A stretch of 64,000 nucleotides of DNA from assembly GCA_964350785.1 (NCBI GenBank), contig CAYGMD010000001.1, forward strand, positions 6,853 to 70,852, in the 5' to 3' direction. The translations under genes were made by a program, and so were the position numbers. Positions 26,631 to 46,928 of the stretch are shown here, in pieces. The stretch is from an uncultured Acidobacterium sp. (lineage in GTDB: Bacteria > Acidobacteriota > Vicinamibacteria > Vicinamibacterales > UBA2999). The first letter of the stretch is position 1. The number at the start of each line of letters is the position of its first letter. Below the pieces are notes generated by a model, which was not told where the DNA came from, did no database searches, and worked only from the letters and a program-made list of their open reading frames with translations.

Positions 26631-27416
26631 TCAGCAGCCGGGTACGGCCAGCACAAACGCGCGGCCGGTCTTGAGCACCGCGGAGGCAATGAGCCCCGGC
26701 CGCCCGCGCGGCTGCTGGCGCAAGCCCATAACCACCAGGCCGGCGCCCTCGGCCACCGCGCAGCGCGAGATCTCTTCCGCCACGTCGCCACGCCTGACAA
26801 CCAGCGACGTCGGCTTGACCGGCTCGAGGCCGCGCCCGCGGTCGCGCAGTTCGGCCGCCGCATCGTGGTCGGAGACCTTGCTGCGGGCCACGGTCATCAG
26901 CACGAGCGGCTGCCCGGCCACCTGAGCCAGGCGGCTGGCCAGCTGCAGCTGGTGCTCACAAGGCATGGTCAAGTTGATGGGAGCTACCAACGGCCCGCAC
27001 GTCAGGGCCGCCCGCTCGCCCATGCTGACAATGTCGACCTCGGTTGGCGGCACCAGCAGCACCGGTGTGCGCGCCAGGCCCAGCAACGCCTCGCTCGTCG
27101 AGCCCAGCAGCAGCCGCGCCAGGCCGCCGTGACCGCGCGAGCCGACGACGATGAGCGTGGCGGCGTGGCGCAGGGCCTCGCGCTGAATGACCTCCGACAC
27201 GCGGCCGGTGGCGACAATCACCGACTCGCTCTCGATGTCGGCCTCATACGGCGCGGCGCGCTCGCACTCGGCCAGCACGCGCTGCTTCGCGCCGGCCGAA
27301 TCATCCGCGCTGACATGCAGGACGAGCAGCCGGGTGCCCAGCAGCTTTGACAAGCCGTAGGCGTGAAACAGCACCCGCCCCGTCAGCGGTCCAAGGTCAA
27401 CGGCGCACAAAATCAC
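26631..27416 (-). CDS. tandem universal stress protein (two Usp domains)
   Basis: ..ILCAVDLG.. and ..LIVVGSRGHGGLARLLLGSTSEALLGLARTPVLLV.., followed by a second Usp-like half. ORF 26631..27563. The start is uncertain; GTG at 27416 is preferred over TTG at 27563. Confidence 0.8.
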   Translation of the reverse strand: MILCAVDLGPLTGRVLFHAYGLSKLLGTRLLVLHVSADDSAGAKQRVLAECERAAPYEADIESESVIVATGRVSEVIQREALRHAATLIVVGSRGHGGLARLLLGSTSEALLGLARTPVLLVPPTEVDIVSMGERAALTCGPLVAPINLTMPCEHQLQLASRLAQVAGQPLVLMTVARSKVSDHDAAAELRDRGRGLEPVKPTSLVVRRGDVAEEISRCAVAEGAGLVVMGLRQQPRGRPGLIASAVLKTGRAFVLAVPGC

Positions 27417-27481
27417 GCCATTCGTAAAGGCAAGGGCCGTGCCGCGATCGGGCGCGCCAAGTGGGGGCCAAATGGCCGAAA

Positions 27482-27521
27482 CCAGCCTTGCACTGGGAAA
27501 TCCAGCCTTGCACTGGGAAAT
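27482..27521. repeat. perfect 20-bp tandem duplication in a divergent intergenic region
   Basis: CCAGCCTTGCACTGGGAAAT occurs twice. Read on the minus strand, the junction gives TGGATT-TCCCA-GTGCA (27489..27504), a -24/-12-like element facing the Usp gene. Confidence 0.8.
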
Positions 27522-27638
27522 AACGCCGGGATCGGGGAGATTTCCCGCGCAAACCCGCGGCAATCCGGCCGGTCACCGGGGCCGGGCATCGGCACGCCTT
27601 TCGCTTCGCATGGGTTGGATTCCCCTTGGAGGTGTGAG

Positions 27639-29456: not shown

Positions 29457-30501
29457 CTAGCAGATGCGCGGCAGTTGCTCGCCGCTCAGCATGTCGACCA
29501 CGCGAGTCGCGCCGATGCGGCTCTTCAGCGTCACCAAGCCACGCGGGTGGTCCGACACGACACCGATGGCGCAGGCGTCGGCGCTGACGGCGTGCTGGCG
29601 CAGGATCTCGAGCGCGCGCGCGGCTTCGGCCGCCGGCACGAAGGCGATGAACCGCCCCTCGTTGGCGACATAAAGCGGATCGAAGCCGAGAATCTCGCAC
29701 GCGCCGCGCACGTCCTCGCGGATGGCAATGGCGTGCTCGTCCATGCGGATGTGCAGGCCGGTGGTCTCGGCGATCTCCACGGTGGCGCTCGCCACCCCGC
29801 CGCGGGTGAGGTCACGCAGGCAATGGATGGTGACGCCCGCCGCAATCAGGGCGAGCACCGGCGCCGCCAGCGGCGCGCAATCGCTTTCGATCGCCGACTC
29901 GAACTGCAGCCCCTCGCGGGCCGCCATCACGGCCATGCCGTGGCGGCCGATGTCGCCCGAGAGCAGCACGGCGTCGCCGGGCTGCACGCTCGCGGGGGCA
30001 ATCACGCCGTCGTACTCGATCACCCCGACCCCGGCCGTCGTCACGTACACCCCGTCGCCCTTCCCGCGGTCCACGACCTTGGTGTCGCCGGTGACCACGG
30101 TGACGCCGGCCTCGCGCGCGGCGGCCTGCATCGACTGGACGATGCGCCGCAGGCTGTCCATGGGCAGGCCCTCTTCGATGACGAAGCCGGCGCTCAGGAA
30201 CTGCGGCCGGGCGCCGCACATGGCCAGGTCGTTGACGGTGCCGTTAATCGCCAGCGTGCCGATGTCGCCGCCGGGGAAGAACATGGGCCGGACGACGTAC
30301 GAGTCGGTCGAGAACGCCAGGCGCGTGCCGGCCAGGTGGAGGTGCGCGCCGTCGTGGTGCGCGTGGTGCGACGGATCGCCGAACGCTGGCAGGAACAGGC
30401 TGTCGATCAACTGGTTGGTGAGCCTCCCGCCGCCGCCATGCGCCATCAGCACGTGCGTGTGATCGCCAATCGGCACCGCGCAGGTGGGGCCTGCGGACAG
30501 G

Positions 30502-30512
<11 letters not shown>
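29457..30512 (-). CDS. hypE: hydrogenase expression/formation protein HypE
   Basis: Start at [14 protein letters not shown]... AIR-synthase-like fold motifs. Diagnostic C-terminus ..GEQLPRIC. Confidence 0.95.
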
Positions 30513-31625
<1,113 letters not shown>

Positions 31626-31629
<4 letters not shown>

Positions 31630-31883
31630 GACCCTTCCCCTTCCTCGAGCTCGGCCAGCTCGCCCATCTGCTCGAGATAGGTGAACACCTGGCGCGCCTC
31701 GTCCTCGTCGACCGTCGAGATGGCAAAGCCCACGTGCACCAGCACGAAGTTGCCGACCACCGCGTCGGGCACGTAACTGAGATTCACGCGCTTCACCACG
31801 CCGGCGAAGTCGACCCGGCCGCTGCGGAGCACGGGGTCGTCACCGTCGATCGTGAGGATGCGTCCAGGGATGGCGAGACACAT
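31626..31883 (-). CDS. hypC: HypC/HybG/HupF-family hydrogenase assembly chaperone
   Basis: Start is [12 protein letters not shown].. (the essential N-terminal Cys2) after AAGGAGAG. ATGA overlap with hypD. Confidence 0.9.
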
Positions 31884-34183
31884 TGAGGGCTCTCCTTGGC
31901 TCGAAGACAGGCGGCGATTTGTCCCAGGGCGATGCCGCCGTCGTTGGGCGGCACGCGCTGGTGCCAGTACGGCCGGAACCCGGCCTGGCGCAGCCTCGTG
32001 ACGGCGCGCTCCACGAGATACCGGTTCTGAAAGCACCCGCCGCTCAGCACGACGGCGGTCTCGCCGGCGGTCTCGGCGGTGGCCAGGATCATATCGGCCA
32101 TGGCGTTGTGGGCGCGCGCGGCGATGATCCCGACCGCGACTCCCCTCGCGGCATCGTCAACCACGGCCCGCACCATGGGCGCCCAGTCGATCACCAGGCG
32201 CGGCGCCTGCCACGTGCCGATGGCGAAACGATGCCCCCGCTCGGTGAGCGCGAAGGGATAAGCGTCGCTGACGCCAGGCGCGATCGCAAACTCCAGGTCC
32301 ATGGCCGCCTGCCCCTCGAAGCTCGATCGCTGGCGGAGGCCGGCCAGCGACGCGATCGCGTCGAACAGCCGGCCCGCGCTCGTCGTGACGGGCGCGTTCA
32401 GCCCTCGCCCCATCGCGTCGATCAGCAGGAGGGATTCGCCGGCCGTGAAGGCCGCGGCGGCCGCCGGCGCGACGGGCGCCGCCGTCTCGCGGGCGATGGC
32501 GTGCAGGGCCCCCAGCGCCGAGCGGCGGGGCTCCTTGATCGCGCGATCGCCGCCGGGCAGCTGGAAGGGCCGCAGGCAGGCGACTCGCGTGAACGAGGCC
32601 GCATCCACGGCGAAGAACTCGCCGCCCCAGACCGTGCCATCGAGGCCGTAACCCGTGCCGTCCCAGGCCACGCCGAGCGCGCGGCCATCGAGCTGGTTCT
32701 CGGCCATGCAGGCCGCGACATGCGCCACGTGATGCTGAACATGCGTGACCGGCAGGCCGAGCGACGCCGCGTGCCGGGTCGATCGATAGTCGGGATGCCG
32801 GTCGGCGACGACGGCGACGGGCGTGATCCCGTACAGGCACTGGAGATCGCCAATCACCTGGACGAACGCCGCGCTCGCCTCGACCGATTCGAGATCGCCG
32901 ATGTGCTGGCTGACGATCACCTCGCCGCCGTTGGCCAGCGCCACGCTGTTCTTGAGATGCGCACCGACCGCGAGCAGCGGCGGTGACGACGGCGCGATGG
33001 GTACCGGGAGCGGGGCGTAGCCGCGCGCCCGGCGCAGCACCAGCTCGCGATCGAGGATCACGCGGACAATCGAATCGTCCACGTTCCGGACGATGGGGCG
33101 ATCGTGCACGAGGAACAGGTCGGCAATCGCGCCGAGACGGTCTACGGCCTCGCGTTCATCGGTGCAGATGGGCTCATCGGCCCGGTTGCCGCTGGTGGCC
33201 ACCACCGGTCCGCCGAGGTCACCCAGCAGCAACGCGTGGAGGGGCGTGTACGGCAGCATCACGCCGAGATTGGGATTGCCGGGCGCCACGGCCGGCGCCA
33301 GTCCCGGCCCGGCATGGCTGCGCCTGGCGAGCAGCACGATCGGCGCCTCCGCCGACGTCAGCAGCCGGCGCTCCGGGGCCGTCACGACGCAGTCGCGATC
33401 CAGCGATGCCAGGTCCGGGTACATCACGGCGAACGGCTTCTCTTCGCGGTGCTTGCGGGCGCGCAAGCGCCGGATGGCCTTTTCGTTGGCGGCATCGGCA
33501 ACGAGGTGGAACCCGCCCAGGCCCTTGACGGCGACAATCTTCCCGTCGCGAATCGCGCTGACCGCCGCGCGCGCGGCCGCGTCGGCCGCCGCGAATGGCC
33601 GGCCGGACGCGTCCCAGGCGGCGAGGCCCGGGCCGCAGCGCGGGCAGGCATTCGGCTGCGCATGGAACCGCCGGTCGCAGGGGTCGTGGTATTCGCGCTG
33701 GCACTCGAGGCACATCGTGAACCGGCGCATCGACGTGTGGTCGCGGTCGTACGGCATCGCGTGGATGATGCTGAACCGCGGGCCGCAGTTGGTGCAGTTG
33801 GTGAACGGGTAGCGGTAGCGGCGGTCGGCGGGGTCGAACACCTCGCGGCGGCAGTCATCGCACAACGCGAGGTCAGGCAGCACGAGTGTCGAGAACGCAC
33901 CGTCGCGGACGCTGTCGAGGATCTGGAAACCCGAGTGGCCGGCCGGGTCGAGCCACGACGCTTCGAGGGTGTGAATCGCGGCGTGTGGCGGCCGCTCGCC
34001 GGTCAGGCGGGATCGAAATACGTCCAGGTCCTGGCGGCGGCCCTCCACTTCGATGACGACGCCCAGGGTCGAGTTGCGGACCCAGCCGTCGAGCCGCAGG
34101 TCGCCGGCCAGGCGGTAGACGAATGGGCGAAAGCCGACGCCCTGAACGGCACCCCGGACCGCGAGCCGCAGGCGTTCACGCAT
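31793..34183 (-). CDS. hypF: carbamoyltransferase HypF
   Basis: Acylphosphatase-like N-terminus (..[19 protein letters not shown]..), two CxxC zinc-finger pairs, and YrdC-like and Kae1-like domains. Its 3' end overlaps hypC by 91 nt. Confidence 0.95.
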
Positions 34184-34835
34184 GGCCGGCCGTCAGTCTT
34201 GCCATCAGCCAGTCACCCCATTCGGCGACGCCAAAGCGCGAGGTCGCGGCGGTTTCGAAGATCACCAGGCGCGGATTGATCTGCCGGGCATGCCGTTTGA
34301 TCTCGGCAATGTCCACGGTCACGTAAGGGAGCAGGTCGACCTTGTTGATGATCAGGACCGAGGCCTTTCGGAACATCGCCGGATACTTCAACGGCTTGTC
34401 AGCGCCTTCGGTGGTGCTGAGCACAACGACCTTGAGGGTTTCGCCGAGGTCGAAGTTGGCCGGGCACACCAGGTTGCCGACGTTTTCGATGAACAGCAGG
34501 TCGACCTGGTCGAGGTTGAGGCTGGCGACGGCGTCGGCGACGAGGTTGGCTTCAAGATGGCAGCCACCGTTGGTCACGATTTGCACCACGGGTACGTGGT
34601 ACTTCGCGACCCGCTGCGCATCGATGTCGGTCTGGACGTCGCCTTCGACCACCGCGATGCGGGCGCGATCGCGCAACTGTTCGATGGTGGCCTCGAGCAG
34701 CGTGGTCTTGCCGGCGCCGGGCGAGCTGAGGATGTTCACCGCCAGCACCCCGTTGCGCGCGAACAGCTCGCGGTTGACGGCCGCCAGCTCGTCGTTTTTC
34801 TGCAGGACCTTGCGTTCGATCGTGACCACGCTCAT
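34176..34835 (-). CDS. hypB: hydrogenase nickel-incorporation GTPase HypB
   Basis: ..NILSSPGAGKTTLLE.. P-loop, ..CHLEA.., ..ENVGNLVCPA.. and ..INKVDL.. motifs. Confidence 0.95.
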   Translation of the reverse strand: MSVVTIERKVLQKNDELAAVNRELFARNGVLAVNILSSPGAGKTTLLEATIEQLRDRARIAVVEGDVQTDIDAQRVAKYHVPVVQIVTNGGCHLEANLVADAVASLNLDQVDLLFIENVGNLVCPANFDLGETLKVVVLSTTEGADKPLKYPAMFRKASVLIINKVDLLPYVTVDIAEIKRHARQINPRLVIFETAATSRFGVAEWGDWLMARLTAGHA

Positions 34836-35194
34836 GACGCCCTCTCCCTCGCGTCGTCGAGCTCGACGTCCACGACGTGAAGCTCGTCACCGTGCCGGAT
34901 CGCCATGCCGAGCGCTCCGCACGACGGGCACACGAACTGCGCGCCCGACAGCCCGGTCACCCGGCCACATTCGCTGCAGACCGCCTCGGCCGGCACGCGA
35001 TCGATTTCGAGCACCGCCGCGGCATACGGCGTGCCGGCCACGATGGCGGCGAAGCAGAACGCGAGGGAATCCGGCACCACGCCCGCCAGGTCGCCCACCC
35101 GCACGCGGACCGCGCGCACCCGCGCGGCATCGGCGTCGCGCACGTTGTGCTGGACGATGTCGAGGATGCCGGCGGCGAGCGTCAGTTCATGCAT
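34832..35194 (-). CDS. hypA: hydrogenase maturation nickel metallochaperone HypA
   Basis: Start is MHELTLAAGILDIV.. (the MHE nickel-binding N-terminus). CxxC..CPxC zinc site (CSECG.. / CPSCG..). Confidence 0.9.
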   Translation of the reverse strand: MHELTLAAGILDIVQHNVRDADAARVRAVRVRVGDLAGVVPDSLAFCFAAIVAGTPYAAAVLEIDRVPAEAVCSECGRVTGLSGAQFVCPSCGALGMAIRHGDELHVVDVELDDARERAS

Positions 35195-35753
35195 CGCGGG
35201 CCTCCGAGACGGCGGCGAGCCGTCCCACGTCCACGGCATCGCCGTCGGCCGACGCAAAGGCCACGGCTTTCGGCCGGAACGGGAAGCCCAGCGTTGCGGC
35301 CTCGTCGGCGACGCGGGCGACGAGGTGGTCGAGCCCGCCGGCCACGGCCGGCGTCAGGCCAATGCCCAGTTCGATCGATTGCGGCACCAGCCCGAGCAGG
35401 ACAACGCGCGCGGGGTAGCGATCGAGCCAGCGGGCGCCGTCCAGCAGGTCGGCGACCCCCACCTGGTGGGGCGACAGCCGGGCGGCGACTGCCGGCGGGA
35501 CCTCGTCGCCGTCGAGGCGCACGAAGCTGCCCGGCGCCTCGTCGGCGCGAACGGCATCCACCAGGATCAGCGCATCGGCCTGGTCGAGGTACGGCAGCAG
35601 CGACAACCCCAGCGTGCCGCCGTCGAACACCCGCACGCCGGCCGGCGCGTCGTAGCGATCGCGCAGCCGCGTCACGGCCGCCGACCCGACGCCGTCGTCC
35701 TCGAGCAGCACGTTGCCGAGGCCCAGCACCAGCAGTGGCGTGCGTTCATTCAT
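35187..35753 (-). CDS. HyaD/HybD-family hydrogenase maturation endopeptidase
   Basis: ..LVLGLGNVLLEDDGVG.., ..LILVDAV.. and ..SPHQVGV.. motifs. Confidence 0.9.
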   Translation of the reverse strand: MNERTPLLVLGLGNVLLEDDGVGSAAVTRLRDRYDAPAGVRVFDGGTLGLSLLPYLDQADALILVDAVRADEAPGSFVRLDGDEVPPAVAARLSPHQVGVADLLDGARWLDRYPARVVLLGLVPQSIELGIGLTPAVAGGLDHLVARVADEAATLGFPFRPKAVAFASADGDAVDVGRLAAVSEARDA

Positions 35754-36474
35754 CGAGCTGGCCCTTCCGGTTGATGAAGCGATAGCCGGAATGCACGAGG
35801 TCTTCCGGCGGGACGAACTTGTAGCCCGAGAAGATCGACTCCATGGTGGCGTTGGCCTCGACGGTGGACATCAGGACGGCACTGTAGACGTGATGCACGG
35901 CGAAGCCGAGGAGCAGCCACATCACCGCGTGATGAATCCAGCGCACGACCTGCACGCCGCCGAGGAGCGGGGCCAGCGACGCGAACCAGGCAACCGGGGA
36001 GCCGACGTCGGCGCTGCCGCTGCGCAGGGTCAGCCCGGTGAGGATGGCCACGAAGTAAAGGCCGAACACCAGGGTGTAGGTGGCGCCCGCGACGGGATTG
36101 TGGCCGACGAAGCCGGGCGGCTTGCGCATGGCGAACAGGTAAAACTTGATGGTCGGCCACAGGCCGTGGCGCCGCAACGGGTGGACGGGCACGAACTTGT
36201 CCCAGCGCGCGTACTTGTTGCCGGTGAACATCCAGATGATCCGCATGGTCACCGCCGCGATGAAGACATACGCGGTGTAGCCGTGGATCACCTTGACCCA
36301 GCCCATGAAGAACGAGTCACCGGCCGGGCCGGGTACCGTGACGTAGGGGCGGCCGATGTAGAAGCCGGTCATCGCGAGCACGACGATCGACAGGGCGATC
36401 AGCCAGTGCGAGACCCGCACCGGGACCTCCCACACGTAGACCTGAACGCGCCGGGTCGAAGCGACGGCGGTCAT
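35746..36474 (-). CDS. cybH: Ni/Fe-hydrogenase b-type cytochrome subunit
   Basis: Start is MTAVASTRRVQVYVWEVPVRVSHWLIALSIVVLAMTGFYIG.., aa 71 of ORF 35746..36684. Four TM helices with conserved His. ATGA overlap with the large subunit. Confidence 0.9.
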   Translation of the reverse strand: MTAVASTRRVQVYVWEVPVRVSHWLIALSIVVLAMTGFYIGRPYVTVPGPAGDSFFMGWVKVIHGYTAYVFIAAVTMRIIWMFTGNKYARWDKFVPVHPLRRHGLWPTIKFYLFAMRKPPGFVGHNPVAGATYTLVFGLYFVAILTGLTLRSGSADVGSPVAWFASLAPLLGGVQVVRWIHHAVMWLLLGFAVHHVYSAVLMSTVEANATMESIFSGYKFVPPEDLVHSGYRFINRKGQLDE

Positions 36475-38177
36475 ACCACCCTCACGCTCGCCAGGGTGCG
36501 GCGCGTGCCATCCACGACGTGGACGCCGCAGGCCATGCACGGGTCGAAGCTGTGGACCGTGCGCAGGATCTCGATCGGCCGCTCGGCGTCGGCAACGGGC
36601 GTTCCGATCAGAGCCTCCTCGTAAGGTCCGCGGCGTCCCCTGGCATCGCGGGGGCCGGCGTTCCAGGTGCTCGGCACGACGCACTGATAGTTCTGAATCA
36701 GGCCGTTGCCGATCTTCACCCAGTGCGCCAGCGCCCCGCGGGGGGCTTCATGGAACCCGGCGCCCATGGCCTCGGCCGGCCACGACGAGGGCTCCCACTT
36801 GCTGGTGTCGTGGATGCGGTAGTCGCCGGCATCCATGTTGGCGGCCAGCGCATCGACCCACTCCTCCATCTTCTCGGCCAGCAGCTGGGTCTCGATGCCC
36901 CGGGCCGCGACCCGGCCCAGCGTCGAGAACAGGGCCTCGGGACCGACGCCGAGCGCCTTGAGAACGCCGTCCACCAGCGTCTTCACGCGCGGCTGGCCCG
37001 AAACATAGGCGACCAGCATGCGGGCCAGCGGGCCCACTTCCATCGGCTCGTCGGCGTAGCGCGGCGACTTGAGCCACGAGTACTTCTTGTCGGTGTCGAG
37101 CCGCTCGTAGGGCGGCGTCGGGCCGGTGTAGTTGGGCGCGGTTTCGCCGTCGAAGGGGTGCAGCGACGCGTCGTCGCCCTTGGCGTAGTCGTACCAGGAA
37201 TGGGAGATGTACTCCGACACCTTGCTCGGATCGAACGTTTCGGTCTTGGCGATATCGCGGCCGCGGATGATGCCGCTCGGAATGAAGAGCGCGGGCGAGG
37301 CGGTGTCGTCGTCGGGATACTCGCCGTAGGCGAGGTAGTTGCCGACGCCGCGGCCGTGCCCGGCCCAGTCCTTGTAGAAGCCGGCGATCGCCAGCAGGTC
37401 CGGAATGTAGACGCGGACGACGAAGTCGCGGGCCCGCGCCACCAACTGCTTCAGCTCCGCGATCGTGCCGGCGTTGAGCGCCGACTGGCTGTTGGGATCG
37501 ATCGGCGTCGACATGCCGCCGACCAGGAAGCTCTGCAGGTGCGGGTTCTTGCCGCCGAGCACGGCGTGCAGCTTGATGAACTCGCGCTGCCAGTCGAGCG
37601 CTTCGAGGTAGTGGGCCACGGCCATCAGGTTGGCCTCGGCCGGGAGGCGATAGGCCGGGTGGCCCCAGTAGGCGTTGGCGAACGGCCCGAGCTGGCCGCG
37701 TTCCACGAACGCCTTCACGCGATCGCGGACGCCGGTGAAGTAAGTCGGGCTCGACAGCGGCCAGTCGGATATCGACTGGGCCAGCGACGCCGTCTTCGCG
37801 GGATCGGCCGACAGCGCCGACACGATGTCGACCCAGTCGAGCGCGTGCAGGTGGTAGAAGTGCACGACGTGGTCCTGCACGCACTGCGCGCCGATGATCA
37901 GGTTGCGGAGCAGCCGCACGTTCGGCGGCGGCGCCGAGCCAATGGCGTTCTCGACCGCGCGGATCGAGGCGATGGCATGCACCGTGGTGCAGACGCCGCA
38001 GATGCGCTGGGTAAACGCCCACGCGTCGCGCGGGTCGCGGCCCTTGAGGATCATCTCGATGCCGCGGAACATCGTCGACGACGACCAGGCGTCCTTGACG
38101 ACGCCGCCGTCGACTTCGGCCTCGATGCGCAGGTGGCCCTCGATGCGGGTGACCGGATCGACGATTACGCGGCTCAT
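36471..38177 (-). CDS. [NiFe]-hydrogenase large subunit (membrane-bound uptake type)
   Basis: ..DPVTRIEGHLRIE.., ..RICGVCTTVHAIAS.. and a C-terminal ..HSFDPCMACGVHVVD.. with a cleavable extension. Confidence 0.97.
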   Translation of the reverse strand: MSRVIVDPVTRIEGHLRIEAEVDGGVVKDAWSSSTMFRGIEMILKGRDPRDAWAFTQRICGVCTTVHAIASIRAVENAIGSAPPPNVRLLRNLIIGAQCVQDHVVHFYHLHALDWVDIVSALSADPAKTASLAQSISDWPLSSPTYFTGVRDRVKAFVERGQLGPFANAYWGHPAYRLPAEANLMAVAHYLEALDWQREFIKLHAVLGGKNPHLQSFLVGGMSTPIDPNSQSALNAGTIAELKQLVARARDFVVRVYIPDLLAIAGFYKDWAGHGRGVGNYLAYGEYPDDDTASPALFIPSGIIRGRDIAKTETFDPSKVSEYISHSWYDYAKGDDASLHPFDGETAPNYTGPTPPYERLDTDKKYSWLKSPRYADEPMEVGPLARMLVAYVSGQPRVKTLVDGVLKALGVGPEALFSTLGRVAARGIETQLLAEKMEEWVDALAANMDAGDYRIHDTSKWEPSSWPAEAMGAGFHEAPRGALAHWVKIGNGLIQNYQCVVPSTWNAGPRDARGRRGPYEEALIGTPVADAERPIEILRTVHSFDPCMACGVHVVDGTRRTLASVRVV

Positions 38178-39289
38178 TTGCGGCCTCCCTCGCTGCCGGC
38201 CGGAGGTATCGGCTCGTACTTGTCACCAACCCGCTTGCCGATCTGAATCAGGCCATGGGCCGCGAAGGCGGCGGCCACCGCGGCCACCGCGCCAAGACCA
38301 ATGGTGTCGATGTTCGAGGCCGCGCCAAAGCCCGGCACGCCGGGCAGGTGCTGGTAGAAGGGCGTCATCGTGTCCCAGAAGTTGGGCTCGGAGCAGCCGA
38401 TGCAGGGATGACCGCAGCCAATCGGCCAGTTCGTGCCGCCGTTCCACTTGATGTGGGGGCAGTTCTGGAACGCAACCGGTCCCTTGCAGCCCATCTTGTA
38501 CAGGCAGTAGCCGGCACGGTGGCCCGCGTCGCCCCACTCTTCGACGTACTGACCCGCGTCGTAGTGCGCGCGGCGCTCGCAACCGTCGTGGATCGACTTG
38601 CCGTACGCAAACAGCGGCCGCCGGTAGCGATCGAGCGCGGGCCACTCCTTGAACGTAAGGTAGTGCACGAGCAGCGCGGTCAGGTTTTCGACGTTGGCGG
38701 GACAGGCCGACAGGTTGATCAGGTTCTTCACGCCCGGCACCGCCGCCGACACGCCCAGCGCGCCGGTGGGGTTGGGGCCGGCGGCCGGGATGCCGCCAAA
38801 CGAGGCGCACGTGCCGATGGCAATGGTCGCCATCGCCTGGCCGCACACCTCGCGCGCGATGTCGAGCGCCGAGCGGCCGCCAATCGTGCAGTAGGCGCCA
38901 CCCGCGCCGGTGGGAATGGACCCCTCGACGACGGCAATGTAGGCGCCGGACCGCTCCTTGACCGTGCGCGCCAGGTTGGCTTCGGCCTGGTGGCCGGCCG
39001 CCGCCATGATCGTCTCGTGATAGTCGACCGACAGCGTATCGAGGATCACCTCGGCGGCCGTCGGACGGCTCGCGCGCAGGAACGACTCGGTGTTCCCGGC
39101 GCAATCCTGGAACTCGAGCCAGACCAGCACCGGCTTCTCGGCCGCCCGCACCGCCCGCGCAATCTGGGCGGCGGCCGAGTCGGGTAGTGCCAGCGCCGAC
39201 GCCATGGCGGCGCAGAAACCGACGAACTCGCGCCGGGTCACACCACGGCGCTCGAGCTCCGACGCCAACCAGTCGGGTTGGTTCCTCAT
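38174..39289 (-). CDS. [NiFe]-hydrogenase small subunit with Tat signal and C-terminal membrane anchor
   Basis: Start is MRNQPDW.. after GAGGGAGAG. Twin-arginine motif ..RRGVTRREFVGF... FeS motifs ..GTCASFGG.., ..YCLYKMGCKGP.. and ..GHPCIGC... C-terminal TM ..IGLGAVAAVAAAFAAHGLI... Confidence 0.95.
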   Translation of the reverse strand: MRNQPDWLASELERRGVTRREFVGFCAAMASALALPDSAAAQIARAVRAAEKPVLVWLEFQDCAGNTESFLRASRPTAAEVILDTLSVDYHETIMAAAGHQAEANLARTVKERSGAYIAVVEGSIPTGAGGAYCTIGGRSALDIAREVCGQAMATIAIGTCASFGGIPAAGPNPTGALGVSAAVPGVKNLINLSACPANVENLTALLVHYLTFKEWPALDRYRRPLFAYGKSIHDGCERRAHYDAGQYVEEWGDAGHRAGYCLYKMGCKGPVAFQNCPHIKWNGGTNWPIGCGHPCIGCSEPNFWDTMTPFYQHLPGVPGFGAASNIDTIGLGAVAAVAAAFAAHGLIQIGKRVGDKYEPIPPAGSEGGRK

Positions 39290-39444
39290 GGCTCTCCCTC
39301 GCTTTCGCGCCGGCCGCCCGCAGCCGCGATCGGGCCGCGCCATTCCTTGACGCGGACCCAGACGGCGATGGTGATGGGAATGAGCGCGCTCACTGCGGGA
39401 ACGAGCGCCGATGCCGCCGCGAGCTCCTCGTGGTGCCGCCTCAT
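39286..39444 (-). CDS. candidate 52-aa single-TM protein, translationally coupled to the hydrogenase small-subunit gene
   Basis: ATG at 39444 with AGGAG 7 nt upstream. Sequence MRRHHEELAAASALVPAVSALIPITIAVWVRVKEWRG... Its TGA overlaps the small-subunit ATG (ATGA). Codons are GC3-rich. No homology evidence is available. Confidence 0.4.
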   Translation of the reverse strand: MRRHHEELAAASALVPAVSALIPITIAVWVRVKEWRGPIAAAGGRRESEGEP

Positions 39445-39522
39445 ACCGTGGCTCCTGTGGCGCCGGATTGTGATGTGACGTGGAGGGGCCAATGCGGGAA
39501 CCGCCCTTCCGCGAACGCGGGG

Positions 39523-39538
39523 TGCAAGGCCTACGCCA
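39523..39538 (-). promoter_or_regulatory. candidate sigma-54 (-24/-12) promoter of the hydrogenase operon
   Basis: Minus strand reads TGGCGT-AGGCC-TTGCA with correct GG/GC spacing. It lies about 80 nt upstream of the ATG at 39444. Confidence 0.55.
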
Positions 39539-39545
39539 GCGCAAG

Positions 39546-39625: not shown

Positions 39626-40324
39626 TCAGCAGACCTCGGCGTCAATTGGCGGTACCGGCACCACATGCGGGGCCACGGTGAGCCGATTGTCGACCCCGGT
39701 GATCCCCGGCGCATGGCTCACGGCCGCCTCGATGGCCTCCAGTTCGGCCCACGAGCCGACCTCGCCCTCGAGCCGGACGACGGACCCTTCCACCAGGATC
39801 GCGACGCCCCGGGCGTCGACGTCGGCGCAGCGGTGCAGGGTCTGGACGATGCGCCGGCGCAAATCGCGAATCGACGACACCGGCTGGACGGTGATGTGGT
39901 TGATGACATCGCGCACACCGCGCACGTGGCGCACCGTTTCGGCCGCCATCGCCCGCACGAAGTAGGCCTCGACCGAGCCTGTAAGCGAGACGTGGCCGGC
40001 GTGAACCACGGCCTGGACCGTGTCGGGAAGGCCGCGCAGGCGCAGCGCTCTGTCGATGTCGGCGGCAATTTCGGGGTCGGTGCGCTCGAGCCGGAGGCGG
40101 ACCTGGATGTCGTTGGCCACCGCCCGCACGCCGTGCACCCGCTTGGCCGCCCGCTCGGCCGCCAGCTTGCCGGCATAGGTGTCGATGAACCCGGTGAGCG
40201 TCACGACGCCGCCGCGGGCGGTCACGCCGATGTCAGTAGCATCGACCTCCGAATCCCACTCAAGTTGGTGAATCACGGAATCGCGAATGATGGTGTTGGC
40301 CTGAAGGGGATTGGCAGTCGGCAT
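39626..40324 (-). CDS. BON-domain (OsmY-like) protein, three BON repeats
   Basis: Start is MPTANPLQANTIIRDSVIHQLEWDSEVDATDIGVTARGGVVTLTGFIDT... The repeated pattern ..V.V..G.V.L.G.V.. occurs three times. Confidence 0.85.
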   Translation of the reverse strand: MPTANPLQANTIIRDSVIHQLEWDSEVDATDIGVTARGGVVTLTGFIDTYAGKLAAERAAKRVHGVRAVANDIQVRLRLERTDPEIAADIDRALRLRGLPDTVQAVVHAGHVSLTGSVEAYFVRAMAAETVRHVRGVRDVINHITVQPVSSIRDLRRRIVQTLHRCADVDARGVAILVEGSVVRLEGEVGSWAELEAIEAAVSHAPGITGVDNRLTVAPHVVPVPPIDAEVC

Positions 40325-40386
40325 GGCAAACGTCCTTTCAGCCCCGGCGATGCCAAACCCGTGCCGTCGGGTATCCTGCAGGTAGC

Positions 40387-41640: not shown

Positions 41641-41680
41641 GGCCTGGCCCCTTTCTGGATAGTCGCTCGCCTCTTGCAAG

Positions 41681-41696
41681 GGCAACGTCCATGCCA
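41681..41696 (-). promoter_or_regulatory. candidate sigma-54 (-24/-12) promoter of the Usp-cytochrome c gene
   Basis: Minus strand reads TGGCAT-GGACG-TTGCC, about 40-55 nt upstream of the ATG at 41640. Confidence 0.6.
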
Positions 41697-41775
41697 GCCC
41701 GATCTGTCGGCCGGACGGGCCTGGCGCGGCCGATCGCACTGCGACATTTCCAACGACGTGAGGAAAAATCCGCGC

Positions 41776-41791
41776 TGGCCCGGTCCGTGCA
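41776..41791 (+). promoter_or_regulatory. weaker sigma-54-like element upstream of the acyl-CoA synthetase gene
   Basis: TGGCCC-GGTCC-GTGCA, then GGAGGA, then TTG at 41815. Confidence 0.4.
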
Positions 41792-41814
41792 TTCACTGGA
41801 CGTGGAGGACCGCT

Positions 41815-43938
41815 TTGCCTGAGTTGCCGCACCTGCCCCCCGCCCGATCTTTGACGCCGTTTTTTGAGCCGGCCTGCGTGGCCGTCGTCGGCGCCAGCCG
41901 CGAACGCAATAAGATCGGGTCGGAAATCCTCCACAACCTGGTGGCCACCGGGTTCACGGGCAAGGTGGTTCCCGTTCATCCGGCAGCCGACACCATTCAG
42001 GGCCTGACCGCATATCCGCGGGTCGCCGACATTCCATCGGCTGTTGACCTCGCGGTGATCGTGGTGCCGGCGGCGCAGGTGCCGGCGGCGGTCGACGATT
42101 GCCTGGCCAGGCAGGTGCCGGCCATCTGCATCATCAGCGCCGGGTTTGGCGAGTGCAGCGAAGAGGGCCGCGCGATCGAGCGCGAGATGGTGCGCAAGAT
42201 TCGCCAGGCCGGCAGCCGCCTGATTGGCCCCAACTGCATGGGCCTGCTCAATACCGATGCGCGCTTCGCGTTGAACGCCACCTTCTCGCCGGTGTATCCG
42301 CCGGCCGGCGGCGTGGCCATGTCGACGCAAAGCGGCGCCCTGGGCCTGGCGATTCTCGACTACGCGCGACAGTTCAACATCGGCATCTCGAGTTTCGTCT
42401 CGGTCGGCAACAAGGCCGACGTCTCGGGCAACGATCTGTTGCTGTACTGGGAGACCGATCCCAGCACGGCGGTGATCCTGCTGTACCTGGAAAGCTTTGG
42501 TAACCCGTCGAAGTTCAGCCGCATTGCCCGGCGCATCAGCCGCACCAAGCCGATCGTCGCGTTGAAGTCGGGGCGCTCCCCGGTTGGCGCGCGCGCGGCC
42601 GCCTCGCACACCGGCGCGCTGGCCTCGTCCGACGACTTCGTCGACGCGCTCTTTCACCAGGCGGGAGTCATCCGCACCAACACGGTCACCGAGTTGTTCG
42701 ACGTGGCGACCCTGCTGTCGCGGCAGCCGCTGCCGAGCGGCCGCCGCGTGGCGATTCTGACCAACGCCGGCGGCCCCGGCATCCTGGCCGCCGACGCGTG
42801 CCTCGCGCACGGCCTCGTGGCCGCCGAGCTCACTCCCGCCACGAAGGCCGCGCTCAGGGCGTTCCTGCCGGCCGCGGCGGCCGTCAACAACCCGGTCGAC
42901 ATGCTGGCCTCGGCCTCGCCGGCCCAGTACCGGCAGGCACTGGGCCGGCTGCTCGGCGATCCCAATGTCGACAGCGCCATCGTGATCTTCATTCCCCCGC
43001 TCATCACGAGCGCGGATGAAGTGGCGACGGCCATTGCCGGCGCGGCGGCCGGATCGGGCAAACCCGTGGCCGGCGTCTTCATGCGCAGCCACGCGGCTCC
43101 GGGGTCGCTGGCGGCGGTACCGTGCTATGCCTTCCCCGAACCGGCGGCCATTGCCTTGTCACGCGTCGCGGGCTACGGCGAATGGCGGCGCCAGCCGCTC
43201 GGCGAGGTGCCGCCGTTCCCCGACTTGCAGGCCGGACTGGCGCGCGCCGTCGTCGACACCGCGGTGCACCGCGGCGGCGGCTGGCTGTCGGCGGTCGAGG
43301 CCAATGCCCTGATCTCGGCGGCCGGCATCGCGACGCCGCGGTCGCACTTCGCCACGTCGGTGGATGAAGCGGTCGAGGCCGCCGCCAAGCTCGGCCTGCC
43401 CGTGGCGGTCAAGGCCGTCGGCGCGGCCCTGCTCCACAAGACCGAGCACCGCGCGCTGCGGCTCAACCTCGGTTCGCGGGCCGCCGTCCGCCAGGCGGCC
43501 GTCGAGTTGACCCAGGCCCTGGGCGATCGCATGGACGGCTTGTTGGTGCAGACGATGGTGAGCGGTGGCGCCGAGATGATGATCGGCGCGATCAACGACC
43601 CGATCTTCGGCCACGTCGTCGTCTGCGGCAGTGGTGGCGTGCTGGTCGATCTGCTGGCCGACTCGGCGTGCCGGCTGCATCCGGTCACCGATCGCGATGC
43701 GCACGAGATGGTCGAGTCGTTGAAGGGCGTGCGCCTGCTGCGCGGGTTCCGGGGCGCCGAGCACGCCGACGAGCCGGCGTTCAGGGACGCCATTCTGCGG
43801 ATCTCGGCGCTGGTCGGCCTGTGCCCGGAAATCCAGGAACTCGATGTGAATCCCATGAAGGTGCTGCCCGGGGGCGTGTCGGCCATCGACGTGCGCGTGC
43901 GCGTCAACGGAGGAAGTGAGGAAGTGAGAAGCTTCTGA
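41815..43938 (+). CDS. ADP-forming acetyl/acyl-CoA synthetase (fused alpha-beta, NDP-forming family)
   Basis: TTG start 5 nt after GGAGGA, aa 48 of ORF 41674..43938. CoA-binding ..VAVVGASRERNKIGSEI.., ..LIGPNCMGLLN.., ..SFVSVGNKADVSGNDLL.. and a C-terminal ATP-grasp part. Confidence 0.85.
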   Translation: MPELPHLPPARSLTPFFEPACVAVVGASRERNKIGSEILHNLVATGFTGKVVPVHPAADTIQGLTAYPRVADIPSAVDLAVIVVPAAQVPAAVDDCLARQVPAICIISAGFGECSEEGRAIEREMVRKIRQAGSRLIGPNCMGLLNTDARFALNATFSPVYPPAGGVAMSTQSGALGLAILDYARQFNIGISSFVSVGNKADVSGNDLLLYWETDPSTAVILLYLESFGNPSKFSRIARRISRTKPIVALKSGRSPVGARAAASHTGALASSDDFVDALFHQAGVIRTNTVTELFDVATLLSRQPLPSGRRVAILTNAGGPGILAADACLAHGLVAAELTPATKAALRAFLPAAAAVNNPVDMLASASPAQYRQALGRLLGDPNVDSAIVIFIPPLITSADEVATAIAGAAAGSGKPVAGVFMRSHAAPGSLAAVPCYAFPEPAAIALSRVAGYGEWRRQPLGEVPPFPDLQAGLARAVVDTAVHRGGGWLSAVEANALISAAGIATPRSHFATSVDEAVEAAAKLGLPVAVKAVGAALLHKTEHRALRLNLGSRAAVRQAAVELTQALGDRMDGLLVQTMVSGGAEMMIGAINDPIFGHVVVCGSGGVLVDLLADSACRLHPVTDRDAHEMVESLKGVRLLRGFRGAEHADEPAFRDAILRISALVGLCPEIQELDVNPMKVLPGGVSAIDVRVRVNGGSEEVRSF

Positions 43939-43960: not shown

Positions 43961-44452
43961 CTAAGCTTTCGCCGCCGCGATCAGCGCGTCGGGGGCAATG
44001 AAGTCCCGCTCGTTCGTGCGCACCGCCAGTACCGGGCACGGCGCCGTGCGCACCACCCGCTCGGCGGCGCTGCCCAGCAACAACTGCTTCACGGCGCCGC
44101 GGCCGTGCGTGCCAACGACGATCAGGTCGATGGCGTTGGCCTTGGCGTACTCGGTGATGCCGCCGGGGACGTTGAAGCTGGTTTGCACCACGCCGACCAC
44201 CTTGAGGGTCTTGCGATCGTCCTCGGTGATCAAGGCGTCGAGGTCGCGGTGCGCAGCCTTCTCCAGGTCGCGCTGGAGATCCGGGATCGCAAAGCCCACT
44301 TCGGGGCTGTAGCGCATCATCACGTCCTCCACGACGTGCAGCACGTGGAGGGTGGCGTTGTACGAGCGGGCCAGATCACGGCCATACGCCATGGCGACAG
44401 CCGACGGCTCACCGAAGTCGGTGGCAACGAGGATGTTCTTCAGCACAACCAT
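43961..44452 (-). CDS. universal stress protein (UspA family)
   Basis: MVVLKNILVATDFGEPS.. and ..LIVVGTHGRGAVKQLLLGSAAERVVRTAPCPVLAVR... Confidence 0.9.
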   Translation of the reverse strand: MVVLKNILVATDFGEPSAVAMAYGRDLARSYNATLHVLHVVEDVMMRYSPEVGFAIPDLQRDLEKAAHRDLDALITEDDRKTLKVVGVVQTSFNVPGGITEYAKANAIDLIVVGTHGRGAVKQLLLGSAAERVVRTAPCPVLAVRTNERDFIAPDALIAAAKA

Positions 44453-44562: not shown

Positions 44563-45036
44563 ATGAAAGCGATCGCGGGCGCGTTCGAACGGTTTTCCGG
44601 GCTCGATACCCCGGCGCCGGTCGTGACGGCGCGAGAGATTCTGAGGACGGCCGTGAAAAAACTCCCACTCCACGTCCTTGTCGTCGATGACGAACCGTTG
44701 ATTCGCTGGTCGGTAACCGAAACCCTTGCCGACCTTGGCCTTGACGTCGAACAGGCCGACTGCGCCGCCTCGGCGCTGCAGACCATTACGACCACGGCCC
44801 TGCCCTTCGATGTCATCGTCCTCGACCTCCGGTTGCCCGACATGCGGGACCTCTCGCTGCTGGCGACCATCCGGCAGCTGCTGCCCGAGACGCCGGTGGT
44901 GTTGATGACCGCATTCGGCACCCCCGAGATCATGGCCAACGCGCGCCAGCTGGGCGTGCGCGCCGTGCTGAACAAGCCGTTTGAACTCAGTGAGTTGAGC
45001 CGCGTCGTGGTGGACGCGTTGACGCCGGTGCGTTGA
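44563..45036 (+). CDS. stand-alone response-regulator receiver protein
   Basis: ..VLVVDDEPLIRWSV.., ..DVIVLDLRLPD.. and ..LNKPF... About 35 aa of N-terminal extension. No output domain. Confidence 0.85.
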   Translation: MKAIAGAFERFSGLDTPAPVVTAREILRTAVKKLPLHVLVVDDEPLIRWSVTETLADLGLDVEQADCAASALQTITTTALPFDVIVLDLRLPDMRDLSLLATIRQLLPETPVVLMTAFGTPEIMANARQLGVRAVLNKPFELSELSRVVVDALTPVR

Positions 45037-45093
45037 AGGCCGGCTCGGACTTGGGCCATACTTGGCGCGTCGCGAAATGCGACGCCCCCCACC

Positions 45094-45558
45094 ATGATTA
45101 ACCCCTCTTTCGGACACCAGACGCCGCCGGGCACCGGAATGCCGCCGGGTCCGCTGGAGAACGCGACCGGGCCGGCCGAGCGGCCGGCGCCGCGCACCGC
45201 CCTGGTCGTCGACGACGAGGCGCTCATCCGCTGGTCGGTCAGCGAGACGCTCGGTGAGTTGGGCTTCGACGTCGCGCAGGCCGCCGACGGCGCCTCGGCA
45301 ATGAGCGCCATTGCCGGCGCCGCCGCGGCCTTCGACGTCGTGGTGCTCGACCTGCGGTTGCCCGATGTGAACGACCTGTCGCTGCTGGGCCACGTGCGCG
45401 AACTGCTGCCGGCGGCCATGGTGGTGCTGATGACCGCCTTTGGCACCGCCGAAGTGGTGGCCGGCGCCCAGGCCCTCGGCGTCGCCGGCATCCTCAACAA
45501 ACCCTTCGAACTCGCCGAACTCAGCCGCCTGCTGACGCGCGACGGGCCGGCTTCGTAA
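45094..45558 (+). CDS. stand-alone response-regulator receiver protein (paralogue of 44563..45036)
   Basis: ..ALVVDDEALIRWSV.., ..DVVVLDLRLPD.. and ..LNKPFELAELSRLL... Confidence 0.85.
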   Translation: MINPSFGHQTPPGTGMPPGPLENATGPAERPAPRTALVVDDEALIRWSVSETLGELGFDVAQAADGASAMSAIAGAAAAFDVVVLDLRLPDVNDLSLLGHVRELLPAAMVVLMTAFGTAEVVAGAQALGVAGILNKPFELAELSRLLTRDGPAS

Positions 45559-46928
45559 TGGCCAATGCCACGATCCTGATCGTCGACGACGAGCAGTTGA
45601 TCCGCTGGTCGCTGGCCAGCCGCCTGAAGGACGAAGGTTACCGGATCCTCGAAGCCGGCACCGCCGCCGAAGCCCTGTCGCAACACCGCGAGGGCGTCGA
45701 CCTGGTGCTGCTCGACATCGGCCTGCCCGACGCCAGCGGGTTGTCGGTGCTCAAGCAGATCAAGGAATCGGATCCCGATACGCTGGTCATCATGCTGACC
45801 GGCCAGACCGGCGTGCAGACCGCGGTCGAGGCGATGAAGAACGGCGCCTTTCATTACGCCAACAAGCCGTTCGATCTCGACGAGGTCGTGCTGCTGGTCG
45901 AGAAGGCGCTCGAGACGACGCAGTTGCGCCGCGAGGTCCGCACGCTGCGGGCCCGGCAGGCCCAGCCCTACGGCCCCGAAAGCATCGTCGGCGAAAGCGC
46001 GCCGATCGTGGCGGTGCGGGCCATGCTGCAGAAGATCGGCGTCAGCCCCGCGTCGACCGTGCTGCTGACCGGCGAGAGCGGCACCGGCAAGGACCTGGCC
46101 GCCAAGGTCATTCACTACAGCAGCAACCGCGCCGCGCGGCCGTTCATGAACATCACCTGCTCGGCGCTGCCCGAGACGCTGCTCGAAAGCGAGCTGTTCG
46201 GCCACGAGCGCGGCGCCTTCACCGGCGCCGACCGGCAGAAACGCGGCCTGCTCGAGTCGGCCGACGGCGGCACGGTGTTCCTCGACGAGATCGGCGAGAT
46301 GGTGCCGCTGCTGCAGGCCAAGCTGCTGCGGTTCCTCGAGGAGAAGTCGTTCAAGCGCGTGGGCGGCTCGGCCGACGTCAAGGTCGACGTGCGCGTGATC
46401 GCCGCGACCAACCGTTCGTTGCAGGAAGAGGTCAGGAAGGGCCACTTCCGCGAAGACCTGTTCTATCGCCTCAACGTGATGGCGGTGCCGCTGCCGCCGT
46501 TGCGCGAGCGGCGGGACGACATCCCGCGGCTGCTGCGCCACTACATCGACCTGTTCAACGTCGAGTTCCGCAAGAAGATCGTGGGCGTGTCGCCCGGCGC
46601 GATGAAGGCGCTGCAGGCCTACGCCTGGCCCGGCAACGTCCGCGAATTGCGCAACGCCGTCGAGCGGGCCATGCTGCTGACCGAGAGCGCCGAGTTGTCG
46701 GAGGCGCAGTTTGCCATGCTCGGGGCGCCGGAGGGCGAGTTGTCGACCGGCATGGGCTTGCCGGCCAGCGGTATCAACCTCGAGGAGCTCGAACGGTCGC
46801 TGGTGGTGCAGGCGCTCGAACGCAGCGGCTGGAACCAGACCAAGGCGGCGACGCTGCTCGGCCTCAACCGCGACCAGATCCGCTACCGCATCGAGAAGTT
46901 CAAGCTGGAGAAGGCAACTCCACGGTAA
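45558..46928 (+). CDS. sigma-54-dependent Fis-family response regulator (NtrC-type bEBP)
   Basis: REC domain (..ILIVDDEQLIRWSL.., ..LVLLDIGLPD..), AAA+ domain with ..GESGTGKD.. and the ..GAFTGA.. sigma-54 contact loop, and a C-terminal Fis-type HTH ..NQTKAATLLGLNRDQIRYRIEKF... Confidence 0.93.
   Translation: MANATILIVDDEQLIRWSLASRLKDEGYRILEAGTAAEALSQHREGVDLVLLDIGLPDASGLSVLKQIKESDPDTLVIMLTGQTGVQTAVEAMKNGAFHYANKPFDLDEVVLLVEKALETTQLRREVRTLRARQAQPYGPESIVGESAPIVAVRAMLQKIGVSPASTVLLTGESGTGKDLAAKVIHYSSNRAARPFMNITCSALPETLLESELFGHERGAFTGADRQKRGLLESADGGTVFLDEIGEMVPLLQAKLLRFLEEKSFKRVGGSADVKVDVRVIAATNRSLQEEVRKGHFREDLFYRLNVMAVPLPPLRERRDDIPRLLRHYIDLFNVEFRKKIVGVSPGAMKALQAYAWPGNVRELRNAVERAMLLTESAELSEAQFAMLGAPEGELSTGMGLPASGINLEELERSLVVQALERSGWNQTKAATLLGLNRDQIRYRIEKFKLEKATPR

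Follow-up and report, generated by a model that had tools for sequence, protein, structure and literature searches.

A conserved asparagine at the second proximal-cluster ligand position in the small subunit of a probable group 1f [NiFe]-hydrogenase from an uncultured acidobacterium

What kind of enzyme is encoded when a [NiFe]-hydrogenase small subunit has a Tat signal, a membrane anchor and a cytochrome b partner, together with asparagine in place of the second cysteine ligand of its proximal Fe-S cluster? The question is raised by a gene in the window, the stretch of 64,000 nucleotides of DNA analysed here, whose preliminary description implied that such an asparagine is rare in a Tat-dependent group 1 enzyme. 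Asn66 is not peculiar to the window gene. Throughout its family the second proximal-ligand position ancestrally carries asparagine, a conserved residue that interchanges only with aspartate. The gene very probably encodes the small subunit of a membrane-bound [NiFe] uptake hydrogenase of group 1f (Hya/Hyo type) that faces the periplasm.

The small-subunit frame appears in the list of open reading frames as 456 aa (38174..39544, minus strand). An ATG at 39289, preceded by GAGGGAGAG, is a plausible start and yields a protein of 371 aa. This protein matches the TIGR00391 model 'hydrogenase small subunit' at 409 bits against a cutoff of 179.5, and a PDB-wide search of all chains matched it to 43 [NiFe]/[NiFeSe] small subunits, with 1h2a_S at the top (E 9e-97). 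Group 1 small subunits are recognised by a twin-arginine signal at the N terminus and by motifs for three Fe-S clusters, and the protein has both. The Tat signal, C-terminal anchor and cytochrome b partner named in the preliminary description were all recovered, as a T-R-R-E-F-V motif, a hydrophobic stretch for which the highest 19-residue Kyte-Doolittle windows begin at residues 326-333, and a TIGR02125 match (Table 1).

Translation of positions 39130..39077 on the minus strand gives VLVWLEFQDCAGNTESFL, with CAGN inside. In the HMMER alignment, 'qdCagNtes' of the query lies opposite 'aeCtgCses' of D. vulgaris Miyazaki F 1h2a_S, so that Asn66 (precursor numbering) corresponds to Cys20 of the mature Desulfovibrio small subunit, the second ligand of the proximal cluster. 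The replacement is thus as first described, and the accompanying worry that the motif had been mis-registered can be set aside, because the flanking W-L...E-S and the three other proximal ligands align and the register is unambiguous. Those proximal ligands are Cys63, Cys161 (GTCASFGG) and Cys196 (SACPAN); the distal cluster is served by His234 and Cys237 (IHDGC), Cys262 and Cys268, and the medial cluster by Cys277, Cys296 and Cys299 (GHPCIGC). Eleven of the twelve canonical Fe-S ligand positions are therefore kept, and the twelfth is Asn. The proximal ligands and the distal His are as conventional as had been supposed; the same view of the medial motif holds for GHPCIGC itself but not for an adjoining Cys292, which stands where other groups have Ala or Ser.

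The small-subunit gene stands first in a 10-gene uptake-hydrogenase cluster of ~9.8 kb, all on the minus strand, which encodes the small subunit, large subunit, cytochrome b and protease followed by hypABFCDE. The large subunit has a 15-residue C-terminal extension after DPCMACGVH, and the HyaD/HybD-family protease lies two genes downstream of it. The NiFe-binding motifs expected of a group 1 large subunit (RxCGxC and DPCxxCxxH, here RICGVC and DPCMACGVH), the C-terminal extension with an endopeptidase gene close by, and a b-type cytochrome as the membrane subunit that accepts electrons are thus all present, as in group 1. The cluster is intact and self-sufficient and is no remnant.

Table 1. 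Features of the hydrogenase cluster and of the small-subunit gene in the window.
Feature	Position	Strand	Evidence or remark
[NiFe]-hydrogenase small subunit (HyaS/HyoS type), 371 aa	38174..39289	-	TIGR00391 and best PDB match 1h2a_S
Tat motif T-R-R-E-F-V, residues 18-23	39221..39238	-	read from sequence
Cys63-Ala-Gly-Asn66, codons TGC GCC GGG AAC	39092..39103	-	second proximal Fe-S ligand place
Cys292, extra Cys in W-P-I-G-C-G-H-P-C-I-G-C medial motif	38414..38416	-	alignment
C-terminal hydrophobic anchor IGLGAVAAVAAAFAAHGLIQIG, residues ~327-350	38240..38311	-	Kyte-Doolittle
[NiFe]-hydrogenase large subunit, 568 aa	36471..38177	-	RICGVC and DPCMACGVH motifs
Ni/Fe-hydrogenase b-type cytochrome subunit	35746..36477	-	TIGR02125, 156.6 bits vs cutoff 121.5
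HyaD/HybD-family maturation endopeptidase	35187..35753	-	TIGR00072, 143.6 bits
hypA	34832..35194	-	TIGR00100, E 6e-23, 81 bits, slightly under 88.1 cutoff
hypB	34176..34835	-	TIGR00073, 272 bits
putative hypF, 796-aa ORF	31793..34183	-	homologous ORFs after structural genes in related loci, 39-74% identity
hypC, begins MCLAIPGRI...	31626..31883	-	sequence
hypD	30502..31629	-	PF01924, 504 bits
hypE (AIRS and AIRS_C domains)	29457..30638	-	ORF start probably later than 30638

The genes flanking the cluster encode three universal stress proteins (one fused to cytochrome c), a BON-domain protein, an ADP-forming acetyl-CoA synthetase-like protein, response regulators and a sigma-54 activator. A sigma-54-like -24/-12 element, the sole match in the window, precedes the small-subunit gene. 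It is kept in 2 of 77 relatives and is probably due to chance, since it is not conserved.

For an artefact, whether introduced by sequencing or assembly or left by a pseudogene in decay, no support was found. AAC differs from TGC and TGT at two positions, each of the 10 cluster genes is intact, and an identical small-subunit protein is present on three independent contigs (NCBI, Logan, ENA). The residue is moreover conserved, with synonymous AAC/AAT variation. A base-call error or chance is excluded for Asn66 by the two-base difference together with the Asn/Asp conservation and codon variation in relatives, which bears out the original judgement that a single miscalled base was unlikely. An artefact is refuted by the intact cluster, the independent contigs and the conserved residue, and its probability is vanishingly small.

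The 120 closest database homologues, several of them named Vicinamibacterales, are 75-100% identical to the window protein and carry Asn at this position in 119 cases and Asp in one. A genome survey that took one genome per GTDB species recovered 80 related loci of 58-86% identity, from Acidobacteriota, Gemmatimonadota, Myxococcota, Alpha-, Beta- and Gammaproteobacteria, Geobacteraceae/Desulfuromonadales, Chloroflexota, Nitrospirota and Methylomirabilota, at least nine phyla in all. Asn occupies the position in 67 of them, Asp in 11 and Cys in two, the Asp loci being the Geobacter branch and its neighbours; the codons are AAC (58), AAT (9), GAT/GAC (11) and TGC (2). An RRxF (Tat) motif is found in 78 of the 80 loci, and the order small subunit, large subunit, cytochrome b, protease is kept in 66 of the 70 with enough downstream DNA.

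The Asn/Asp exchange is seen from the Geobacter side as well. A search seeded with a Geobacter-type small subunit matched proteins of Geobacter hydrogenophilus, Geotalea, Geomonas, Oryzomonas and Geomesophilobacter, and its 120 matches comprise 71 with Asp and 47 with Asn, the two replacing each other among relatives that share 71% identity or more with the query. A search of PLSDB plasmid proteins found no homologue above 60% identity, and so no annotated close relative, but provided reference enzymes. Two plasmid-borne enzymes, CAGN in Sulfurimonas paralvinellae and CDGN in Sulfobacillus acidophilus, are likewise Tat-bearing and linked to a cytochrome b.

A broader tabulation used 144 sequences, made up of 50%-identity cluster representatives and 18 reference and locus sequences. 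The first Cys is aligned and the position occupied in 109 of them, of which 66 have Cys, 31 Asn, 9 Asp and 2 Glu. For the most part the Asn and Asp forms retain the remaining three proximal Cys as well as the distal His.

These counts bear directly on the idea of a rare or new hybrid, in which a group 1 architecture of Tat signal, anchor and cytochrome b would have separately acquired a group 2a-type Asn. The C-x-G-N-T motif is indeed common to group 2a HucS, and the presence of a Tat signal and distal His alongside Asn does differ from group 2a. The comparison drawn in the preliminary description, that group 2a HupS has Asn, lacks a Tat signal and replaces the distal His, is accurate (PMC6616624), and HucS shows C-S-G-N-T without the distal His. 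The implied rarity is nonetheless not borne out. Asn or Asp is clade-wide, present in 78 of the 80 species loci, nearly all with Tat, and the near-uniform Asn of the close homologues and the Asn/Asp forms of the broad alignment, mostly with distal His, point the same way. The residue distribution among relatives refutes a hybrid, which is accordingly very unlikely.

Asn or Asp at this site had in fact been documented in a Tat-dependent subgroup. In the group 1f enzymes of Roseiflexus, Geobacter and Frankia, Asn or Asp stands in place of this Cys (Mohammadi et al. 2017, PMC5364354), and Yonemoto et al. 2014 list 'Proximal, 2, Cys to Asp' for G. metallireducens and 'Cys to Asn' for N. punctiforme (their Table 1, PMC4070099). 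Since Asn/Asp is a published clade-wide signature of group 1f, the window gene is an ordinary new member.

Membership in group 1f is supported by an NJ proxy tree, the taxa of the relatives and the agreement of motif and synteny. With the large subunits of Geobacter sp., Trichlorobacter and Chloroflexaceae loci that of the window shares 65-67% identity, as against 44-53% with six group 1 comparison enzymes: the 1d enzymes E. coli Hyd-1 and C. necator MBH, the 1c enzyme E. coli Hyd-2, A. macleodii Hyn, and the plasmid enzymes of Sulfurimonas and Sulfobacillus. In the NJ tree of large subunits, which took in only the 64 GTDB loci yielding a full-length sequence, the window and these 64 loci are monophyletic with respect to the comparison enzymes in 80 of 100 bootstraps. 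The neighbours of the window large subunit are Geobacteraceae Hya-type, Chloroflexaceae and Acidobacteriaceae loci, apart from 1d, 1c and A. macleodii Hyn. Both the C-A-G-N proximal motif and the make-up of the operon, with genes for the small and large subunits, a cytochrome b (HyoE/HyaB) and a protease, are features of group 1f.

The published members of group 1f, a polyphyletic and poorly studied group (PMC6896113), come from matching taxa. They include G. sulfurreducens Hya and the A. ailaaui enzyme (PMC6896113), A. capsulatum ACP_3053 and the Roseiflexus enzymes (PMC5900883; PMC6776052), and a Deferribacter enzyme encoded as HyoS, HyoL and HyoE with a protease (PMC6896113). The window enzyme resembles this group (HydDB 'oxygen-protecting', HyoSLE; G. 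sulfurreducens Hya, Acidobacterium ailaaui, Roseiflexus, Frankia synton-3) in its Tat-exported small subunit, its Asn/Asp at the second proximal Cys, its conventional distal His, its large subunit of ~570 aa (~573 aa in Frankia 1f; PMC11879354), its small-large-cytochrome b-protease order and the taxa of its nearest relatives. It differs from Frankia 1f in a shorter small subunit, 371 aa against 410-420 aa.

A comparison with the other hydrogenase groups separates features that are shared from those that are not. Group 2a (M. smegmatis Huc, PDB 7UTD; cyanobacterial HupSL) has the C-x-G-N-T proximal motif in common with the window protein, and in a BLASTP alignment with HucS (7utd_B), WLEFQDCAGNTESFL over LWFQGGACSGNTMSFL, CAGNT stands opposite CSGNT. 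The two small subunits are only 31% identical, however, and group 2a is cytosolic without a Tat signal, whereas the window protein has a Tat motif. Its distal His is replaced by Gln in HupS and aligned with Thr in HucS, while the window protein retains His234 in IHDGC; HupS has Asn at its proximal cluster and Gln at its distal one and is made without a signal peptide (PMC6616624). Group 2a also lacks a cytochrome b, Huc reducing menaquinone directly via HucM, whereas the window locus encodes one.

Group 1h (Cupriavidus necator AH, PDB 5AA5; Hhy) places a non-Cys oxygen donor at the same proximal position, in C-D-G-D, and thereby parallels the Asp of the Geobacter branch. It has no cytochrome b partner and is a distant match to the window (5aa5_A, E 1.4e-26), and its small subunit is not known to carry a Tat signal. 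Three [4Fe-4S] clusters have been reported for this group (PMC5900883). Group 1d (E. coli Hyd-1, C. necator MBH) has the same subunit set, gene order, Tat signal and C-terminal anchor as the window, with a large-subunit identity of ~49%. Its C-T-C-C motif and a second supernumerary Cys, in a GxCxxxGC motif, lead to a [4Fe-3S] cluster, whereas the window protein has C-A-G-N, with Gly65 and Gly166 at the supernumerary sites. With both of these Cys absent, any O2 tolerance of the window enzyme would not be achieved by the [4Fe-3S] route.

An experimental parallel in architecture has been engineered. The C81N and C81D variants of A. macleodii HynSL place Asn or Asp at the exact ligand position of a Tat-exported group 1 enzyme, and both are still active (PMC4070099). 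These variants are artificial and otherwise C-x-G-C, with lower yield and small-subunit processing, whereas the Asn of the window protein is native and conserved.

The extra Cys292 raises the question of whether the missing thiolate might be supplied from elsewhere in the protein. The window medial motif, WPIGCGHPCIGC, has Cys at position 5, where the motif described for 1f has Ala (xPIxAGHxCxGC, as quoted second-hand in PMC6501319). Of the 120 closest homologues 118 have Cys292, and so do 51 sequences in the set made up of the window and the GTDB loci, every time together with Asn66. The sub-clade that carries it comprises Acidobacteriota, Myxococcota, Gemmatimonadota and Proteobacteria and reads WPIGCGHPC, in contrast to the Ala of described 1f. 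Elsewhere the position is Ala in Geobacter, Chloroflexi and Acidobacteriaceae 1f, and Ser in 1d and A. macleodii. Because Ala, Ser, Gly and Cys are all found within the clade, position 5 of the medial motif is not diagnostic.

The conservation of Cys292 and its strict association with Asn66 would agree with the idea that this clade-specific residue, or another Cys like it, restores an effectively four-Cys proximal cluster. Yet Cys292 lies inside the medial motif of the C-terminal domain, not close in sequence to the proximal ligands, many Asn-type family members have Ala in its place, and other hydrogenases have Ala, Ser or Gly there, which makes the Cys look like a conservative second-sphere change. 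A role for Cys292 as proximal-cluster ligand is thus highly improbable. On alignment evidence we read Cys292 as a probable second-sphere change rather than a new ligand, since the position accepts all four residues and the Pro blocking the fourth Fe site is still in place.

How electrons would pass through the window enzyme can be outlined from what is shown or standard for group 1. The Tat signal of the small subunit would export the folded heterodimer of small and large subunits, and the C-terminal helix would anchor it in the membrane. H2 would be split at the NiFe site, and electrons would travel through the proximal, medial and distal Fe-S clusters to cytochrome b and on to quinone. With one thiolate ligand lost, the proximal cluster would be left without all-Cys ligation, and two kinds of cluster come into consideration.

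The first is a stable proximal [4Fe-4S] in which the Asn side chain serves as ligand to the fourth Fe. Cyanobacterial HupS, with C-x-G-N, offers the precedent: its [4Fe-4S] cluster is described as bound by three Cys and one Asn, and [4Fe-4S] clusters are reported for the Nostoc protein in spite of the Asn (PMC6616624; PMC4070099). The activity of the engineered C81N and C81D enzymes agrees with such ligation (PMC4070099). Free Asn/Asp exchange in the Geobacteraceae fits a ligating oxygen donor, as with the group 1h Asp; 5aa5_A has Asp at the Asn66 position, which we take to ligate its [4Fe-4S] cluster. Asn is, however, a rare and weak Fe-S ligand. In the only high-resolution structure with the motif, that of Huc, the cluster is [3Fe-4S], with no [4Fe-4S] EPR signal (PMC10017518). 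A stable Asn-ligated [4Fe-4S] has somewhat less than an even chance of being correct.

The second is the cluster of Huc itself. All three HucS clusters of M. smegmatis Huc are [3Fe-4S] in a 1.52 Å cryo-EM map and by EPR, and its authors argue that they raise the potential of the enzyme (PMC10017518). Weighing these precedents, a Huc-like [3Fe-4S], or a [4Fe-4S] with a weakly held fourth Fe, appears narrowly favoured over the stable Asn-ligated [4Fe-4S]. Because a thiolate is removed in either favoured state, the potential of the proximal cluster should rise. A higher proximal potential may in turn bias the enzyme toward H2 oxidation with high-potential acceptors and lessen its sensitivity to O2.

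A raised potential fits reports of aerobic H2 oxidation by group 1f organisms at concentrations as low as atmospheric (PMC7174314, PMC6776052), and it fits the oxidative-stress role proposed for Geobacter Hya (PMC6896113). It is tentatively proposed, as a possibility short of probable, that Asn-type group 1f enzymes, including the abundant soil Acidobacteriota sub-clade, have a Huc-like proximal [3Fe-4S]. Two consecutive [3Fe-4S] clusters would then operate in a periplasmic, cytochrome-b-coupled enzyme, a high-potential relay that would explain aerobic and trace-H2 oxidation. Cys292, beside the medial cluster, possibly tunes this relay further.

The window gene adds an uncultured member, probably of the Vicinamibacterales to judge from its closest named homologues, which are MAGs of that order, to a family with a published Asn/Asp signature. 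Group 1f is common across soil phyla, and links to the uptake of H2 from the atmosphere and to defence against oxidative stress have been made for it, although we know of no structural or spectroscopic characterisation of any member. Its exact match in motif to Huc, with a proximal [3Fe-4S], provides a concrete, testable hypothesis for how group 1f is tuned.

The small subunit carries an extra cysteine, Cys292, within its medial-cluster motif WPIGCGHPCIGC. Of the 120 closest homologues, 118 share this residue, which recurs in the related hydrogenase loci L001-L050 and L059; a Cys at this position is seen only where the proximal Asn is also present. The equivalent residue is Ala in group 1f enzymes that branch more basally and Ser in those of group 1d and A. 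macleodii. Since the fourth-ligand site still holds its Pro, Cys292 is read from the sequence as probably a second-sphere residue.

A different additional cysteine is found in related loci L006, L016, L018, L019, L022, L032, L033, L037, L048, L063 and L067, whose small-subunit motif reads C-C-G-N or C-C-G-D. It is the residue that immediately follows the first proximal ligand in the motif, a site that differs from that of the group 1d supernumerary Cys.

The hydrogenase cluster is surrounded by stress and persistence-type genes, located in the table below. Their products comprise three universal stress proteins (one with a fused cytochrome c domain), a protein with three BON domains, an ADP-forming acetyl-CoA synthetase-like protein and two response regulators, one of which is sigma-54-dependent. 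A candidate sigma-54 element, TGGCGTAGGCCTTGCA, lies upstream of the small-subunit gene, 234 nt from its ATG, and is the sole consensus match in the 64 kb window, where about one would be expected by chance anywhere. Since such an element lies upstream of the small-subunit gene in only 2 of 77 relatives and is thus not conserved, TGGCGTAGGCCTTGCA is probably a chance match or lineage-specific. Within the cluster, the 3' end of the hypF ORF extends about 90 nt past the hypC start codon, which is in a different frame; this reflects either a real overlap or a hypF ORF that runs beyond its functional end. An uncultured Acidobacteriaceae MAG (L073) departs from the usual synteny: its small-subunit gene is followed by that for cytochrome b, and the best matches to the large subunit and the protease are found upstream, on the opposite strand.

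Coordinates of features in the window and on two reference plasmids
Feature	Location	Strand	Remark
Flanking stress/persistence-type genes	26631-27563, 39626-40351, 40756-~41600, 43961-44452	-	
Flanking stress/persistence-type genes	41674-43938, 44563-46928	+	
hypC ATG (31883) to hypF ORF 3' end	31793-31883	-	
Cys292, small subunit	38414-38416	-	extra Cys within WPIGCGHPCIGC
Candidate sigma-54 -24/-12 element TGGCGTAGGCCTTGCA	39523-39538	-	consensus fit
Small subunit, Sulfurimonas paralvinellae plasmid	L084 3330-4565		motif CAGN
Small subunit, Sulfobacillus acidophilus plasmid	L085 3321-4598		motif CDGN

The two plasmid-encoded small subunits are more distant, Tat-dependent and cytochrome-b-linked, and they also bear Asn; both have an N-terminal extension of ~60-70 residues ahead of the RR motif. 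The canonical C-x-G-C occurs in only 2 of the 80 related loci, a Methylomirabilia MAG (L077) and a Bryobacteraceae MAG (L078). In the large-subunit tree both fall within groups of Asn/Asp relatives, a placement that suggests either reversion to Cys or its retention. Among the Geobacteraceae Hya-type small subunits (P0274-P0393), the ligand position is Asp in 71 and Asn in 47, an alternation counted among relatives that share at least 71% identity with the query and one suggesting that Asn and Asp are functionally interchangeable in these enzymes.
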